Source of the DNA: Octopus vulgaris | Lineage: Eukaryota | Direction of reading: 5' to 3' | Assembly (NCBI GenBank): GCA_951406725.2 | Contig: OX597816.1 | Span: forward strand, 164,610,001-164,674,000 | DNA: 64,000 nt | Part shown: positions 4,930-37,008 of the stretch, in pieces | How positions within the stretch are numbered: position 1 is the first letter of the stretch | Layout of the letters: the number at the start of each line of letters is the position of its first letter | The notes under the pieces: generated by a model | What the model saw: the letters and a program-made list of their open reading frames with translations, nothing else | What the model was told of the DNA's origin: nothing | The model's database searches: none | Position numbers and translations under genes: made by a program

Positions 4930-5313
4930 TCGCCTGCATAGCTCGGTAGAGCATCAGACTTTTATGATATATATATATAATTTTATACAAGGCAAACAAG
5001 TGTAAAGGAAATTTTGCTACACAAATTGAAAGCTTGCCAAAAGCCATATCATTTAACAGAATATTGTTTGTCGGTTTGAATTATCTCAAGTATTTGGACA
5101 CAAGCACAATACCTAATACACACATTTTATAAATATATGAGTTTATGTTTTGTAAATACACACACATTCTAATATATGTTAATATTTATTATATAAAAAC
5201 AAAATAAATTCCAATTCCTCATCTAGATATGCAGTATATATGGGCAACACACATAAATATGTTCACATAACTACATGAATGTATATATCTGTGCATGTGT
5301 ATATGTGTATTGT

Positions 5314-5372
<59 letters not shown>

Positions 5373-5406
5373 TTTGTGTATGTATATATTATACACACAC
5401 ACACAC

Positions 5407-5456
<50 letters not shown>

Positions 5457-6406
5457 ATGAATTATATTTAAGTTGTACTATCATAAACTTGACTGTAAGT
5501 GGGGCTTGACATAGATAAAGTTAAAATTATTAAGGGAAAAATTTTGTTCCACAATTCAACACTAAATTAAGTGTGCAAGTATGTGTGTGCATGCATATAC
5601 ATACATATATATATATATATATATACATACATACATACATATATATATATATATGGTAGGGGTGATTCAAAAACAATGTAGAATATTTAGTATCACAACT
5701 ATATTAGTAACAAACTCTAAAAGGAATTTAGAATTAAACCTACTTGATTTTTTAAATGAAATAATGTAAAATATTCTTCCTATTAAATATACAAACATTT
5801 TTTTTTTTTGTACTACTGGCTCTCAACATTTTTACCTGAAGGTGGAGCTGGCCCCACCAGCAATCAAATAAATACTTTGGAAAATAACATATACCTTAAC
5901 AACATGCAAAGAAAGATCGTGAATTTGAAGGTCATATTTGGCCCAGCACATCCCTCCACCACCCCCTCTCTTCAGGTGACCCAGTTAATTTAAATAGGAT
6001 TCGTTTATTTATTTATTTGTTTTTACCTGGAATACCTGTAAAATGTGTCACAAAGACAGAAACGACACTGCTGGTCATTTAATAGGTAGACCTGCAAGGT
6101 AGATAGGTAGGTGCAGTAGATGAATTACATGGAGAGTTATATATGTATGTGCATGTATATACAAGTACGCACATGTACATACATAAGTATATATACATAT
6201 ATGCACAATACATACAAGTATGCAAATATGTAATAAATATTACATATGTATTTAGGCATATATACATGCATATACATATATATATATATATACTTAATCA
6301 TATCAAAGGGAATTTTTGTGGTTATAGAACCTAGCTGTTCTTTCTAGCATGTTGAATCCCACAAGTGGATTCCTTATGTGTTTAAACGTACACTGTATGT
6401 TATGAC

Positions 6407-6442
<36 letters not shown>

Positions 6443-6924
6443 TATATATATATACACATATATATGTATCTGATGATGACGATATATGTGTGTATATATA
6501 TACATATATATATATCTCATATATACATATATATATATGTGTGTGTGTGTTTATTTTTATGTTCAGTTATAATAAAAACAATACAACATTCATCTGATGG
6601 GTTTCTCTATACTTTTGTAGAGAACAAATTCATTATTCCTTAACAAGAATAGTTAAGGAATTGAGAGTGACTTTGAAGCTTCGGCCAGCTAAGCCACAAT
6701 CAGAGGTGCGTATGCCAGAATGTCTATCCACTCACACACAAATATTTACACTAATGAACCATTTTCTCCTGACTGTATGTTACACAAGATTGTTTAAATA
6801 CCGCCAGCTGCTCATCGACCTCAGAAGTGAACTGCTCTCAGTTATTGGTATAGGATTGTACTTTTGTCTTTCACTGTATTACACACCAACAAGGAATTAT
6901 AGGAACAGCAACACTTGTTAGTTA

Positions 6925-7350
6925 GCTAGACAGACACAGATAGATGGCTATATAGATAGATAGACAAATAGATAGATAGACAGACATAGATAGGTGGCTA
7001 AATAGATAGACACAGATAGGTGGCTAAATAGATAGATAGACACAGATAGGTGACTAAACAGATAGACACATAGCAGGCTAAATAGGTAGATAGACAGCTA
7101 AGTAGATAGACAGCTGAATAGATAGACAGCTAAGTAGATAGACAGCTAGGTAGACACATAAATAGATGGCTAAGTAGATAGACAGATACACAGACAGATG
7201 GCTAAGGAGATAGACGATAGATGGCTAAGTTGATAGATACACACACTGATATATAGCTAAGTAAATAGATACTGAGAGAAATGGCTAAATAGACAGATAG
7301 ATGAATAAAGCTAGCTAGCGAGCTAGACAGATAGATATACAGATAGACTA
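6925..7350. repeat. Degenerate (GATA/GACA)n tandem repeat with recurring GCTAA interruptions
   Basis: Directly visible: agatagatagacagacatagataggtggctaaatagatagacac... Confidence 0.9.
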
Positions 7351-8159
7351 CTAAAGCAACTAAACGTGGTTTAACTACTTTAAACTTTTTTTTTTAATAG
7401 TTTCTACATCGTAAACTGATAATAACAACATAGATAACAATAAGCCTACATGGCTTTTTCTAAATACAAAAGGGACTTGCAGCTATCACAGATACAACTA
7501 CAGCTATCATTATTCCTACTATGTAGCAACGATCTTTGTGTGTGTCAGCCGATGTATTTGACACAGTTCCTGTAGTTCATTTAAGTTAACTATTATAGTA
7601 ACCACTGTTAGAAGTCTATAAACAAGCATTACGATTATTTACTTCTGTTGTGTCTGGGGGTTAATATTATTAACTTGTAGGGTTTTTAAATCGCAAGCAA
7701 ACCAAAAAAAAAAAAAACCAGCCATTACCCAAGACAATCAGAAGTAGGAGGGAAATACAATTTCTTGTGACTAGGCAGGTATAAGGTCAGGTTTATGTGC
7801 GTGTGCGTGTGTGTGTGAATGGGGCAATAACAATAAGTGTAAGGGGTCTTTTAATAAACAAAATGAATGGAACGGAAAAAACTTGAAGTGAAAATAAACC
7901 AGACCGTGTTTTAAAAAAAAAAACGGTCAAATACCGAATAACCTCGAGTTATAGAATATCATTTCGGCCAGATGTACAATAAAGCGCCGGCTTAGGACCG
8001 CATCCCCGCTTCTTATTCCAATACGTTCACCAAAAAAGATGAGTAGGATTCCAGAGAATGGATCTTGTGAGGGTTTTCGCAAGCGTATAAGATGGATTCA
8101 ACCATTGTTTAAAAAAATAGGTTGGTGATTGGGAAGTGAAATTTTAATTATTTCACTAG

Positions 8160-8738
8160 TCACCTCTTCTTTTTAATTTGTTTGTTCATTTTTTTCTTTT
8201 TTTCTATCATTTCAAACATAACATCCATTGCTTCGACAAGTCCCTCGCCGGTCACAGCACACGCTGGCTGAACGTGCCATAGTAAACCCGGGGAAGCTTC
8301 GTTTAAGGTTAAAAATTTCTCTATCTCTTCCGGACTCATCGACGCCGGCAAGTCCTGTTTGTTAGCTATAATCAACACGGGTAGACTGTGGCCTTCCAGG
8401 CTACGTAGTAGCCGTAGTAACTCTACCCGGGCCTCTTCTAGTTTTTCTCGGTTTACGCTGTCCACAACGAACACAATACCGTCAGCAGAACGGGTGTAAG
8501 ATTTCCATAAGGGTCGGGTTTTGTCCCGACCTCCCACATCCCAGATGCAGAAAGTAGCACCCTTTGCTTTACCAGTTTTAACACGAATCTTTTCGTAATT
8601 AAACCCTATTGTTGGTACGGGGTTCGTGTACTGGTCAAACTTAAGCCGATACAAGACAGTAGTCTTGCCTGCAGAGTCTAATCCCAACATAGCAAGTTGA
8701 ACAGAGGGACCATCAAGAAGCGATATATGTCCCCCCAT
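8160..8738 (-). CDS. ARL4: ADP-ribosylation factor-like protein 4 family small GTPase (ARL4A/C/D-like), 192 aa, uninterrupted CDS
   Basis: ATG at 8738 gives MGGHIS (MGxxxS myristoylation motif). G1 GLDSAGKTT, G2 PTIGFN, G3 WDVGG(R), RPLWKSYTR typical of ARL4, G4 NKQD, G5 ACA, and a basic C-terminal tail KKKKMNKQIKKKR typical of ARL4. The 22 extra upstream codons in the ORF track start at a non-ATG codon and are unlikely to be translated. Confidence 0.93.
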   Translation of the reverse strand: MGGHISLLDGPSVQLAMLGLDSAGKTTVLYRLKFDQYTNPVPTIGFNYEKIRVKTGKAKGATFCIWDVGGRDKTRPLWKSYTRSADGIVFVVDSVNREKLEEARVELLRLLRSLEGHSLPVLIIANKQDLPASMSPEEIEKFLTLNEASPGLLWHVQPACAVTGEGLVEAMDVMFEMIEKKKKMNKQIKKKR

Positions 8739-8888
8739 AATTATTTGGTTAGTATTAATAATATAAATAAATGGTTTTGATTTGGTTTTTACCCTGTTTA
8801 ACAAAACAAAAAACTGTTTCCACGAAGTTTCTTTTCTTTAATACTGCTGGGCTGTCTGTTGGTTGCTGATATTTTTGGTTAATATTTC

Positions 8889-8905
8889 CTGAGGTAGAGA
8901 AAAAT
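8889..8905 (-). promoter_or_regulatory. Candidate 3' splice acceptor 150 nt upstream of the ARL4 start (possible 5'UTR intron)
   Basis: Minus strand reads TTTTTCTCTACCTCAG|GAAAT: a polypyrimidine tract followed by CAG|G. Motif only; no transcript evidence. Confidence 0.3.
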
Positions 8906-11305
8906 CACAGCAATATCGATAAAATTTTCCAATAATAGAAATACGAAACCAATTCTTAATTTCAAACGCGAACCAGTTTTTAACCTTCTTGAGTAAGATT
9001 TTTTTTTATCAAATCCAAAACGAATAAAATGAAATTTAAATAATTATTCCAGTGAACATTATAATTCTTCCTTTTCTTGGTGTGTTTGGGTTGTTTAATA
9101 CACTGTTTTTTTTTTCCAGGCCGTTTTAAATTAAATTAATTCTTTAAATATTTCAGACAGAACCCGGGATAATTTCTATAATTTTTTAAAAGCCTTATTT
9201 AATCCGATAGTTAATAGCAGCAGTTATTGTTGTTTCCTGAAACACTGCAATCAACTCAGTTGTTGTTTTTCCCTTTTAATTAATTAATTAATTGACTTGG
9301 CCGATACCGGCAACTGGCAATATTTCAATTTCGATAATTAATAATTCTTTTAGATTTTCTTTGGGTCAATTTGAATAAAAACATATTTTTGTAATCGCTC
9401 CAAACCTGTAAACGTGTTTGCCGTATTTTAATATTTAAAGCATCATTCAGAAACTAAATACAATTGAATTGCTTTATAAAAGGAATATTTTCGAGAAGCT
9501 TTCTTTTTGTATTCCTTCCAATCAGAAAAACCACTCGACTTAGCATATTCTCCAGGTTTAATTACAAGTAATCTTCTGGAACATCTTGCCATCTCAGGAT
9601 TGGTAAGAAGATCCAAGGAAAAGTCAGGTAGAAGCGAGGAAGACTGTGAGGTATCACTCGGTGAAAGAAAGAAAAGGTCTCTGGATTCTAGAAATTCTAT
9701 CTTTTTAGAATAAAGTCAATTATTACGGAGGAATTCTCAGTCTATCTTAGAGTTATATAAAATGTAGCGCCGCAATGTAGCGACATCCGAGTCTGGGATT
9801 AATAGTAATATATGCAGATATCCCAATGTAAGTTCAACTGCTAAGATTAGGTAATCCGAATTATTCTTCTATTATTTTTTCTTCCATTCCAAAAGCTAGG
9901 TTTTTCTTGAAAAAACGTTTTCTGATTCTAAGGAAGAGCAGTTTTAAAAACGACTAGGAACAAATTTTTCTTCTGGAAGTCATCGGAAGATATAATTTAA
10001 GTTTCCTTTTTTCTAAAATATTGAATAAACATTCCAGTCGCTGTTGATTTACTTTCAAATTTGTCATAAATATTCATTGCGAAGACTTTAAAGAGAATAC
10101 TGCTGGTGTAAATCTGCCAAGGCAACCGAACGTATTTATGTGAGTAGCAGAGTCTGGGGCAGAGTTTAATAGAAGGTAACGTTATAAAAGGTTGATTCAT
10201 TTAGGGGTTTTCCCCCCATATCCAGTTGATCAATAAAAGGGTAAACGGTGTCTGTCGAAGAACAGTAGAAATAGTAAGGGTAACAATAGTAAAATTAATC
10301 CAGGAATTTGATAAAAAAAGAAAGTGGAAGGCGACCACCGTATCTTACTATTCATAGATTTGTTGCTACACAAACCACTTTGGTTTTTAGGAATCGGAAA
10401 ATAATTTCACTGAATGTTTTTTGGTTGCTTTTTTTTATAGTTTTTATTCCTCACACTTTTGATATTTCCTCGTTATTCTTTCTAGCAAATTATAAATCCA
10501 TGGTTATTCGTTTTCGTTTTTTCATTTTATATATCTTTAAATAAGATATTCCAGTCTCAACGATTGCTTGAGTTGGTGACAGTTATACAACATGGAGACA
10601 CACACACATGGCTTGTTGAATGGTCGGCTAAACAATTTTCTCCTGCAGGACAGAGAAAGAGTAAATATATGTACATATATATATATATATATATTAAGTA
10701 TAACAGAGAATTTTTTACCTCATCACCCACCGCTCTCATGTACTCCTTACAAACACCAGTTTACTCATTCCATACACTTCACTTGTATGTTTCCTGTCTT
10801 AACAGTACTCAATCCACATAAGATCTCCGGATCCCATTCCGCTCTAATCTCACCACAAAATGTAAATGATTAACCCAACACCAAAAAGAAAGCTTCGGTT
10901 ATGATTTCTGAAACATAATTTCTTCGAAACGGTCTCATTCAGCTGTGTAAACCACACCGATTATATACAAAAACATTCACACACACACACACACACACAT
11001 ATTTGTGAAGGCGCATATATACACATATATTTATATATATGTATATATAAATGCATACACACACACAGACAGACACAAGCTTTTCCAATGAAGCAGTCCA
11101 CGTCTTTCTTAAAATATGAGTAATCAGATTTGCAGGTTTATCTTTTAGATTTTTGTCCGTTTGTTATGTTAAATCCATCTGTTGACAGGGTTTTTTTCAA
11201 TGTTGTAACGAATAATAATAATAACAATAATAATAACAATAATAATAATAATTAATTCTTTCATTAGCCAGAAGGGCTTACATAAAAAAAAAAAAAACAC
11301 CATGA

Positions 11306-11341
<36 letters not shown>

Positions 11342-12204
11342 TATACCAGGTGCATAATTAATCCAATAATTCAGTTGCATTTCTTAAATCAATTAAAAGA
11401 ACAACAACAATAAAATCAGAGCTAAAAAAGAAGGAATAAAGAAAAAAAAAAAAAGGCCGAAAACCAACCTAGTTGTAATCCGTAGAAAGCCTGAACAGGG
11501 CTTTTTTTTTTTTTTTTTAAGTTGCCGTAGTAGTAGTAGTAATAGTAGAAGTAGTCCGAGCCATTCTCGCACCTGTTCGAGTGCTTGTGCGTTCGTTAAA
11601 GCCAACAGTGACGACAGCACTGCTGCTGCTACTACTACTACTAATACTACTATTGTTGTTGTTGTTGTTGAAGTTGTTGCTCTCCTACAACTGTGTGACA
11701 TATAACGCACTAATCAAGGGCTTTATTATTTATTTATTTATTTATTTATTTTGTTTTTGTTGTTGTTATTTTTTTTTTTTACAGTGATGGAGGGGCGGGT
11801 TTGGAGAGAGAGAGAGAGAAAGGAAGATACAGAGAGAGAGGCAGAGGGGGGGGAGGGCTTGTGTCGAATCGCTGCTGCTGCTGCTGCTGCTGCTGTTGAT
11901 ACTACCCGTCACTGTGGTTACGACGACGACGAATGGCTAACAACTGTCGCAGATGTCGGCGGCGCCGTGGTCGCCGCCGTCGTCCTCGTCGTTGATAAGC
12001 GATCTCAGTGAAGCACTAAGCACTGTTCACTTCCTCCTGCTCCTCCTACCTTCTCTATGGCTTTTCTTATCAGAGGGGGAGAAGTGGAAAACGGGAAGGA
12101 GGAGGAGGAGGAGTTGAATATAATGTGACTTCCTTTGCTTAATATTAATTACCGTTCTCCCACCACGTCTTCGAGCTAGGCCGTTGTTATGCCAGCCGTT
12201 GCGT

Positions 12205-27778: not shown

Positions 27779-27809
<31 letters not shown>

Positions 27810-27825
27810 TGTATGTATGTATGTA

Positions 27826-28531
27826 TCTACCGATGATACATGATATTGTAGCTAGGACACTTTATAATGAAATCCGTCGGAAGGATAAACCCAAGGACAA
27901 GGAAATAAGAACCTTCAATAAGGTAGAAGCCATAGTCACCCATAACGAAAAAGAATACTGGTGGAATGTCCCAGTGAAGACCTCAATGAAATGTAAGTAC
28001 AACAAACTTGATATAATGGATGGGGGTAGAGAAGAGAAACTGTGCACAGTTGTGGAAATTAGCTGCCCAGTGGATGTTAACATAAAGCTGAAGATCAGTG
28101 AAAAAGAGAACACCTGTGTGAACTATTGAGATTACAAGTTCAGGTTTATACCTGTAATTATTGGGGTTCTGGGATATGTAACACACTGCCTAAAGACCAA
28201 TCTTGAGAAAATGGGCTTCTCAAAACCAGAAAGGAGGAAGCCAATTCGAAGACTGCAGATCCAATCCATCACTGGAACTGTGAATAATTGTAAAACTTCC
28301 CAGAAGTTTATCATTAAAATATATATGAACATGTCTCGATATGCAACTATATATATATAAAACAAAATATACAAATATGCGTATACATACATACATACAT
28401 ACATACATACATACATACAATAAAAAATACTCTGTTGTTGATGTTGAAATTCCAATGAAAGAGCCTTGGATCTAGATTAGAAACCGGTTCTTTCTCTATT
28501 GGCATGAAATCTTGAAATAAACTGAATAATG
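27826..28531 (+). mobile_element. 5'-truncated R4-clade non-LTR retrotransposon (RLE domain plus 3'UTR)
   Basis: YLPMIHDIVAR...EYWWNVPVKTSMKCKYNKLDI...VVEISCPVDVNIKLKISEKEN...FIPVIIGVLGYV...LQIQSITGTV; flanked by (ATGT)n at the 5' side and (ACAT)n at the 3' side. Confidence 0.85.
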
Positions 28532-35629: not shown

Positions 35630-37008
35630 TTAAATATCACGAATTTCTTCATTTGTTGCTTGACCATAATTCACATCAGAGCAAATTTCATTTACTTGTA
35701 TCTCATCTTCTTCAATTTTGTCATTATGTGCATCTGGTGCATTTACCTCAAGGCCAGACAAAGCATCCTGTAAGCGTGAGTTTAAGAGGCTGTGTTATAC
35801 AGTCTGTCCACCAGGAGCAATTCCACAACATTCAAAAGCATGCTTTATAGTTTCTATATTTAAAGTGGCAACAGCTTGGACCACAAAGTTCACTATCTCT
35901 TGAGAAGAAGGTTTTTTTGCGATATCCTTTATTTGTATACTCCTTTTTGCCATTTGAAAACCAATTCTCCCATTCAGCACGAAGGGCTTTCTTGAAAGGA
36001 CCAATAATTGATACATCTAACGGCTGCAAGTAAGATGTTGTTTTAGGAAGTATAAGCTTAAGAATTGTATTATTTCGTTTGAACACTTCTAGGAGCTCTG
36101 TTTTCTTGTGCACTGAGCATTCATTCATGAATAGCACTGAATTTTGAGCATGCCATAGTTGTGCTGTTCTCTGCCCAAACACTTTGTCAGCCCATAGCTG
36201 CATGAATTCATAGGTGATTGATCCCCTGTTGGAGACTGTTAAGTAAATATTCTTTGGGACCTTGATTTTAGGCACGTTTTTCAATCCTTTAAAGATAATC
36301 ATTGTTTTCAACACCTTTCCTGCAGCATTAACACACAACACAGCAGTGAAACGAGATTTGGTGGTACCACAGTGGCTAACATCTACATTTTTATTGCCAA
36401 CAAAGTCTATGGTTGTTGAACTCAACATGTCAACGTATACAGGTGTTTCATCCATTTTATAGATCTGGTCAGCATCCTTATCTGCTGTTAACACTGGAAT
36501 GCTATCTAGATAGTCACTGGCGATTTGTGCCTCTTCTCCAAGTGTTTTATTGTCTGCTTGACCAACATGTGTAATCTTTCTCACAGTCAATTCATTCCGT
36601 TTCACGAAATTGAAAATCCATTTATCAGAACAGCTAAAGCTGTTCATTTCAATTCCAAACCTTTTTACCAATTCAAAAGTATATTCTCGTAAACGGCAAT
36701 AATTTACAATTATATTGTTTGCACCGCTGAACAACAATCCACTGTAAGAGCTCAATCTCTAGATCAGTGCCTATGTGCTGGTCCTCTACCTCCACCAATT
36801 GATCTGCGCCTTCTCTTGTCTGACATATGGATTAACTCAGTTTCTTTTGTGCACCATTCTCTCAATCGTTTCCTATCAATATCTAAGTCTCATGACGCAG
36901 CAGATAAATTGCTAGAATGTTCTTTCACTCGTTTGGTAGCACTCAATTTTTCTCTCTAATGGTATATGATCGTTGAACACGTTTTGATATATTTTCTTTC
37001 GACTTCAT
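35630..37008 (-). pseudogene. pogo/DDE_1 transposase pseudogene
   Basis: ATG at 37008 gives MKSKENISKRVQRSYTIREK.. and a Brinker-type HTH (SAAS*DLDIDRKRLREW). Then CENP-B/Tc5-type HTH (FSCSDKWIFNFVKRN), D1 in MDETP, D2 position mutated to N (LFMNECSVH), D3 35 residues later in QPLD, and C-terminal IKHAFECCGI in a shifted frame. Several frameshifts and stops. Confidence 0.9.

Follow-up and report, generated by a model that had tools for sequence, protein, structure and literature searches.

The DNA that we analyzed, hereafter the window, is a 64,000-nucleotide stretch of the Octopus vulgaris contig OX597816.1. It is rich in microsatellites and harbors one clear protein-coding gene, an ORF that proved intact and free of internal stop codons upon translation (Table 1). 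The encoded 192-residue protein matched the Pfam Arf family with an E value of 6.5e-52 and a score of 175.9 bits, against a cut-off of 22.3. In three trees it grouped with named ARL4 proteins, to which it is 58-66% identical, apart from Arf1 and Arf6, and a 35-row tree split the ARL4 side from the Arf rows with a support of 97. The ARF-family myristoylation feature is present at the sequence level, with Gly2 lying within MGxxxS, a myristoylation-type consensus. An AlphaFold2 model computed from a 48-row alignment reached a mean pLDDT of 90.2, and the structures closest to it were Arf6 and Arf1 chains (E values to 2e-19; rmsd to Arf6 of 1.4-1.8 A); the model is silent on nucleotide state and catalysis. 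Eleven residues precede the first strand and form no amphipathic helix in the model, where residues 1-7 have pLDDT values below 50.

Table 1. Position of the ARL4 gene, its parts and other features within the window.
Feature	Position	Strand	Basis or remark
ARL4 CDS, 192 aa + stop, single unbroken ORF	8160..8738	(-)	translation, Pfam Arf, trees
N-terminal MGxxxS myristoylation-type motif, residues 1-6	8721..8738	(-)	sequence
G1 P-loop, residues 19-26	8661..8684	(-)	coleoids with the common non-mollusc form
Switch I, residues 35-46	8601..8636	(-)	invariant G2 T43
Pro40	8619-8621
Tyr48	8595-8597
G3 box, residues 66-71	8526..8543	(-)	W66, D67, G70 constant in 193 proteins
Codon 71, CGG = Arg71, switch-II catalytic Gln position (Arf6 Q67, Arf1 Q71)	8526..8528	(-)
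Predicted 7-bp mRNA hairpin with codon 71	8512..8531	(-)	fold prediction; region z -0.73, not significant
G4 box NKQD, residues 126-129	8352..8363	(-)	N, K, D constant in 193 proteins
Residues 133-135 (Ser133, Ser135)	8334-8342
G5 region, C160-A161	8256..8261	(-)
Polybasic C-terminal tail, ARL4-typical, residues 180-192	8163..8201	(-)
Candidate A-to-I sites: 8453 N96D, 8443 K99R (protein difference only), 8197 K181R, 8194 K182R	8194..8453	(-)
114-aa ORF	27785-28129	(+)	no Pfam match
271-aa ORF, pogo-like transposase fragment	35832-36647	(-)	DDE_1 endonuclease domain, Pfam E 7.6e-19

Two further ORFs of the window lie outside the ARL4 gene. The longer one is a transposase fragment, and the end of the shorter one resembles by motif the restriction-like endonuclease of non-LTR retrotransposons. 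A tRNA scan returned nothing relevant. Within the ARL4 protein itself, Ser133 and Ser135 would correspond to S141 and S143, which are phosphorylated in human Arl4A (PMC9335210), if the numbering is offset from the catalytic position with no indel assumed.

Two exon-by-exon searches of the octopus's own genome, one of them with a Gln-bearing annelid ARL4, found no second ARL4. A high score was obtained only at the ARL4 locus, and the next pieces were Arl6-, Arf- and Arl2-like by motif; thus, within the scope of such searches, no back-up ARL4 copy bearing the Gln was found, and the gene is the sole ARL4 found in the genome. An Arl6-like ORF by motif, L002 (G000:C2:100512207-100515707), is intronless over ~190 codons and has the normal Gln. 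A metagenome scan for other cephalopod DNA yielded 25 loci, all of them distant Arf relatives (32-63% identity) and none a cephalopod ARL4. Expression of the octopus gene is suggested by sequencing runs that contain it, which we guessed to be RNA, with the exception of X20, which is an RNA library of a relative.

The catalytic switch-II Gln, the mark of a canonical cycling ARF GTPase, is absent from the octopus ARL4, which carries Arg instead. The original prediction had described this Arg codon in an otherwise intact ORF with all other G-boxes, the myristoylation motif and the basic tail, and our translation confirmed it in full. Its assignment to the catalytic position was borne out by HMMER: in the five alignments shown, R71 aligns with Arf6 Q67, standing opposite Q in the wild-type chains and opposite L in two Q67L chains. 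By its sequence, the octopus protein is therefore an ARL4-group member that lacks the catalytic Gln of a canonical cycling ARF.

Arg at position 71 is not confined to the window. All eight members of the 90% cluster carry it, octopods and decapods alike. Besides the window itself, the cluster comprises Argonauta hians, Octopus bimaculoides, Sepia pharaonis and four further records; for five members the underlying contig measures between 122 kb and 182 Mb. Octopods and decapods split ~270 million years ago, and their ARL4 proteins are 91-92% identical. In the Sepia pharaonis record (P0122), a low-complexity tail of 127 residues replaces the basic tail and is probably an annotation artefact. We also inspected assembled contigs of sequencing runs, in which rare variants and low-level editing would escape notice. 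No alternative letter was present at codon 71 in those of X1, X9, X7 and X19 (4/4 runs, from 4 studies) or of X13, all near-identical to the window; X7, X9 and X13 may represent the source DNA of the window itself. In X23, whose contig is 92% identical to the window, all tallied C and G changes fell elsewhere, so that CGG is kept at codon 71. Of the 34 differences between the X23 contig and the window, 30 were listed; they gave 27 synonymous and 2 non-synonymous codon changes across ~101 synonymous and ~322 non-synonymous sites, which points to strong purifying selection on ARL4. X20, from a relative ~92% identical, showed 47 differences, of which the 22 listed gave 16 synonymous and 5 non-synonymous codon changes, and X24 had no matching contig across codon 71.

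These data bear on the possibilities, raised in the original prediction, that Arg71 is an assembly error or a rare allele, or that the gene is unexpressed with dN/dS near 1. An intronless coding sequence is indeed what a retrocopy would show. However, introns are absent from most Arl4 genes according to passages of PMC8358228, the gene is single-copy, its codon changes are overwhelmingly synonymous, and Arg is conserved throughout the coleoid cluster and uniform in the five near-identical runs. We therefore reject error, allele and pseudogene alike as having virtually no chance of being correct. An ARL4 with altered GTP hydrolysis would be the most likely consequence of R71.

The original prediction had proposed a comparison of ARL4 orthologues and paralogues, and this comparison uncovered, beyond the constant Arg of coleoids, a recurrent loss of the Gln in molluscs that a single sequence could not reveal. 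Three protein searches, together with a look-up of the cluster, supplied 193 ARL4-like proteins, whose tree was rooted on lamprey and hemichordate rows, with P0130 (an Arf6 tandem) omitted and P0122 cut to its first 170 residues on account of its unrelated tail; a first tree had held 59 rows of the first 129 and a later one 35 rows. Molluscs formed a clade of 75 of the 193 proteins with a support of 0.958, and position 71 in this clade is K in 28, Q in 27, R in 8, A in 6, E in 3, H in 2 and N in 1. The remaining 118 proteins of the same tree all have Q. Lys occupies the whole gastropod clade (28/28), whose 16 named rows extend from Patella and Lottia to Aplysia, Lymnaea, Elysia and Pomacea. 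Ala marks the Mytilus clade of mussels (n=6), His occurs in two bivalve-clade proteins and is the residue of Mya arenaria, and Glu is found in Mactra antiquata. Gln is retained in the chiton Liolophura and in Mercenaria, Saccostrea, Pinctada and Sinanodonta; P0003, which also has Gln, has no settled place in the tree.

Parsimony placed nine changes at site 71 within molluscs and none outside, over tree lengths of 11.2 and 13.5, respectively. The excess corresponds to a one-sided p of ~8e-4 by tree length, which is a value for one of 173 sites and fails a strict Bonferroni correction alone; the case for site 71 is made because the Gln had been chosen beforehand and because it lies amid a cluster of relaxed sites. 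From these reconstructions, the Gln appears to have been lost at least nine times independently in mollusc ARL4. In a separate HMMER scan of 50%-identity representatives, 44 of 150 were ARL4-like; 43 had Q (42 non-mollusc, 1 mollusc) and one lacked the segment. A and T stand at the Gln position of P0266 and P0315, two divergent ARL4-like proteins from outside the mollusc clade; this argues against a strict mollusc-only claim, and we read the pair as a probable further loss in another animal lineage. The non-mollusc rows are best-scoring matches, and the sample is thereby biased toward conserved proteins.

The sites most skewed toward change in molluscs were 68, 22, 35, 41, 23, 82, 71, 86 and 40. 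The skewed positions fall in the P-loop (22, 23), in switch I (35, 39-42) and around switch II (68, 71, 82, 86). Constant in all 193 proteins were G19, G24, K25, T43, W66, D67, G70, N126, K127 and D129, together with R75, L77, W78 and R83; apart from W66, the first ten are the residues that hold the nucleotide and magnesium, and the corresponding motifs are intact at the sequence level. P-loop positions 21-22 and the switches face the GAP in Ras-family proteins. Hence, as far as the alignment can tell, mollusc ARL4 shows relaxation at the P-loop and switch I positions that face the GAP, while the GTP-binding residues are invariant.

Coleoids take part in this pattern to a limited extent. P-loop positions 21-23 vary widely in molluscs other than coleoids, and the distance from Met to the P-loop is 12-13 residues in 54 of 64 measured mollusc proteins versus 15-29 in 112 others; coleoids are partly exceptional, with a distance of 18 residues and the common P-loop kept. 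Gastropod ARL4 (P0147-P0188) departs further from the canonical active site than cephalopod ARL4, having Glu for Asp in the P-loop in 23 of 28 proteins in addition to its invariant Lys71. In switch I, where mollusc proteins show relaxation at positions 35 and 39-42, all eight coleoid proteins share Pro40. They also share Tyr48, a position where Cys is the residue in 61 of the 67 remaining molluscs and in 115 of the 118 non-mollusc proteins. A change of effector binding through Tyr48 and Pro40 is possible.

The original prediction had further suggested that Arg71 might be a genomically fixed A-to-I edit; on such a reading, an ancestral CAG would have been recoded to CIG in early coleoids and later replaced by a genomic G. 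What stood of this suggestion is the codon, which is genuinely CGG in the window and in X23; its match to an edit did not carry the argument further, and we regard such an origin as improbable and at best weakly supported. Every one-step change from Gln to Arg is an A-to-G change at codon position 2, the sole sense transition open to a Gln codon, so that the match is expected and carries no information. Moreover, eight of the nine mollusc replacements (to K, A, E, H or N) cannot be reached by A-to-G, and hence the notion of a hard-wired edit is not needed. None of the eight coleoids has a genomic Gln, and no protein named Nautilus was among the matches listed in three protein searches. On the side of such an origin, ancestral non-synonymous editing sites of coleoids tend toward genomic G in passages of PMC6881472. 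Editing-like A-to-G differences also occur at other positions of the ARL4 mRNA, and the base in question lies in a predicted hairpin, paired with C, where an A would give an A-C mismatch; one pair of this hairpin is altered on both sides in the X23 contig. Against it, the region folds no better than shuffled sequences, and the peptide sequence dictates most of the pairs in the hairpin. The hairpin, which 256 of 9216 synonymous codings yield, was noticed post hoc and is weak. A search for long-range dsRNA over positions 5000-12000 returned 749 inverted repeats, of which the 25 longest were simple repeats outside the ORF.

Candidate editing sites were noted at other positions of the ARL4 mRNA. 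N96 and K99 are present in 5/5 genome-scale coleoid records, while outside coleoids D96 prevails, in 63 of the 67 remaining molluscs and in 117 of the 118 non-mollusc proteins, and so does R99, in 49 of 67 and 117 of 118, respectively. On the sense strand, A-to-G differences that yield D96 were seen in X19 and X23 contigs, and P0126 combines D96 with R99; K181R occurs in X20 and P0125, and K182R in X20. These differences at 96, 99, 181 and 182 mostly restore the residue of other animals. The set looks like candidate restorative A-to-I editing, with alleles or species differences as the alternative and with X23 guessed to be DNA. The term 'ARL4' is absent from the searchable supplementary text of PMC8382921, PMC9068888 and PMC6881472; since the full site tables may lie outside these supplements, this absence is no evidence about ARL4 editing.

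Our preferred explanation, which we hold with a probability of roughly 55%, is that R71 ARL4 would bind GTP normally, cleave it poorly and be switched by its abundance and not by a GTPase cycle. ARL4, already independent of the cycle, may have lost early in molluscs whatever residual need it had for Gln-dependent, GAP-stimulated hydrolysis. Once that need was gone, separate mollusc lineages could have fixed R, K, A, E, H or N. In coleoids, the myristoylated protein would in that case be GTP-bound at membranes and recruit effectors of the ARL4 type throughout its expression. In support of this, passages of PMC9335210 describe ARL4 proteins as acting apart from the GTPase cycle, with rapid nucleotide exchange and with control through expression and stability, and vertebrate ARL4 is known from the literature to load GTP spontaneously and to be controlled largely by transcription, phosphorylation and degradation. 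NRAS Q61R hydrolyzes GTP very slowly and shows the active state only, according to portions of PMC12116848; on the other hand, ARL14 Q68L behaves like the wild type in passages of PMC12722892, so inference from Ras can fail in ARL proteins. Against the preferred explanation, Gln is kept in 27 of the 75 mollusc proteins, coleoids keep the common P-loop, and the constancy of Lys in gastropods exceeds what simple relaxation explains.

The main rival, built by analogy, is that hydrolysis persists because a TBC-domain GAP supplies both Arg and Gln in trans, in which case residue 71 of mollusc ARL4 would be non-catalytic and free to vary. TBC1D15 is a GAP for human Arl4D (passages of PMC13035273), and TBC GAPs remain active on Rabs with Leu or Ala substituted for the G3 Gln (passages of PMC5902221). 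As TBC GAPs bring their own Gln, mollusc ARL4 may go on hydrolyzing GTP, and six different replacements at position 71 are what such freedom would produce. Yet a purely trans mechanism would make the Gln needless, and it is kept in every one of the 118 non-mollusc matches; furthermore, in the same passages of PMC13035273, Arl4D-Q80L serves as a GTP-locked form and is absent from mitochondria during starvation. We consider this rival a minority possibility, clearly less probable than a GTP-biased ARL4 governed by its level. Less probable again, and compatible with that preferred explanation, is positive selection for a basic residue at 71 on two occasions, Lys in gastropods and Arg in coleoids, where it might for example grip the gamma-phosphate, serve as a built-in arginine finger or make a new effector contact. 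The gastropod data favor it, as Lys stayed constant over a tree length of 4.1 (p ~0.003 at the rate of Gln loss elsewhere in molluscs), and so does the coleoid stem, which is long (0.39 in the 59-row tree, 0.30 in the 193-protein tree) and followed by near stasis. However, retention of Arg within coleoids alone is non-significant (clade length 0.14, p 0.82), stems just as long lead to the chiton pair (0.43) and to P0003 (0.41) in the 59-row tree, bivalves tolerate acidic, small and polar residues at the site, and both Arg and Lys are a single step from a Gln codon. A broader scenario is advanced tentatively, as a possibility that we would not bet on: ARL4 would be constitutively GTP-bound in molluscs, gastropods and coleoids would have independently fixed and kept as wild type the Lys and Arg changes that are oncogenic in NRAS, and A-to-I editing of the coleoid mRNA would in addition bring back older residues at positions 96, 99 and 181.

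The octopus protein resembles vertebrate ARL4A, ARL4C and ARL4D in its Arf fold, G-boxes, Gly2, basic tail and intron-poor gene, and in a short insertion ahead of the G3 strand. It differs from them at the Gln, which is retained in each of the 42 non-mollusc ARL4-like representatives that contain the segment; in vertebrates, Q79L, Q72L and Q80L are laboratory mutants used as GTP-locked forms, whereas the coleoid Arg is natural and its gene single-copy. Natural absence of the catalytic switch-II Gln from an ARF-family protein has precedents in ARL10, ARL13A/B, ARL15 and ARL16 (passages of PMC12722892). Those, however, are whole paralogue groups, while here an ARL4 orthologue has apparently lost the Gln repeatedly within one phylum, with six replacements, and it is this recurrent loss inside ARL4 across molluscs that we consider the new aspect. 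No earlier report of it was found in the open literature searched, subscription papers being outside that scope, and a study of ARF evolution (PMC8358228) makes no mention of molluscs, Q71 or glutamine.

Functionally, the closest likeness is to the class II pseudoGTPases RND1-3 and RhoH (passages of PMC12722892), with which mollusc ARL4 would share GTP binding, poor cleavage and control by level; these belong to another subfamily, and their hydrolysis deficiency has been measured while that of mollusc ARL4 is predicted from sequence. At the level of the residue, the parallel is oncogenic NRAS Q61R and Q61K (portions of PMC12116848), with R at the same position in coleoids, K in gastropods and H in two bivalve-clade proteins. 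In NRAS, though, the change is a somatic gain of function in a tightly cycling GTPase, and in molluscs it is the fixed wild type of a self-loading family. Rap1 with RapGAP (PMC2265111) and the Rabs with TBC GAPs (passages of PMC5902221) provide models of hydrolysis without the GTPase's own Gln, to which any cephalopod parallel is an analogy. Rab20, considered as a natural Gln-to-Arg parallel, found no support in those passages of PMC5902221 and was dropped.

These results carry a caution for coleoid genomics, in that an A-to-G substitution is not always a fixed RNA edit, and they indicate that a change of the Q61R/K type can be a long-kept wild-type state. Although ARL4 proteins are said to function apart from the normal GTPase cycle, a GAP for Arl4D was recently reported. 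The single-gene orthologues of molluscs would allow a test of whether a TBC-type GAP bypasses the GTPase's own glutamine, and the natural Q/R/K/A/E/H/N series at position 71 may thereby test whether ARL4 needs hydrolysis.
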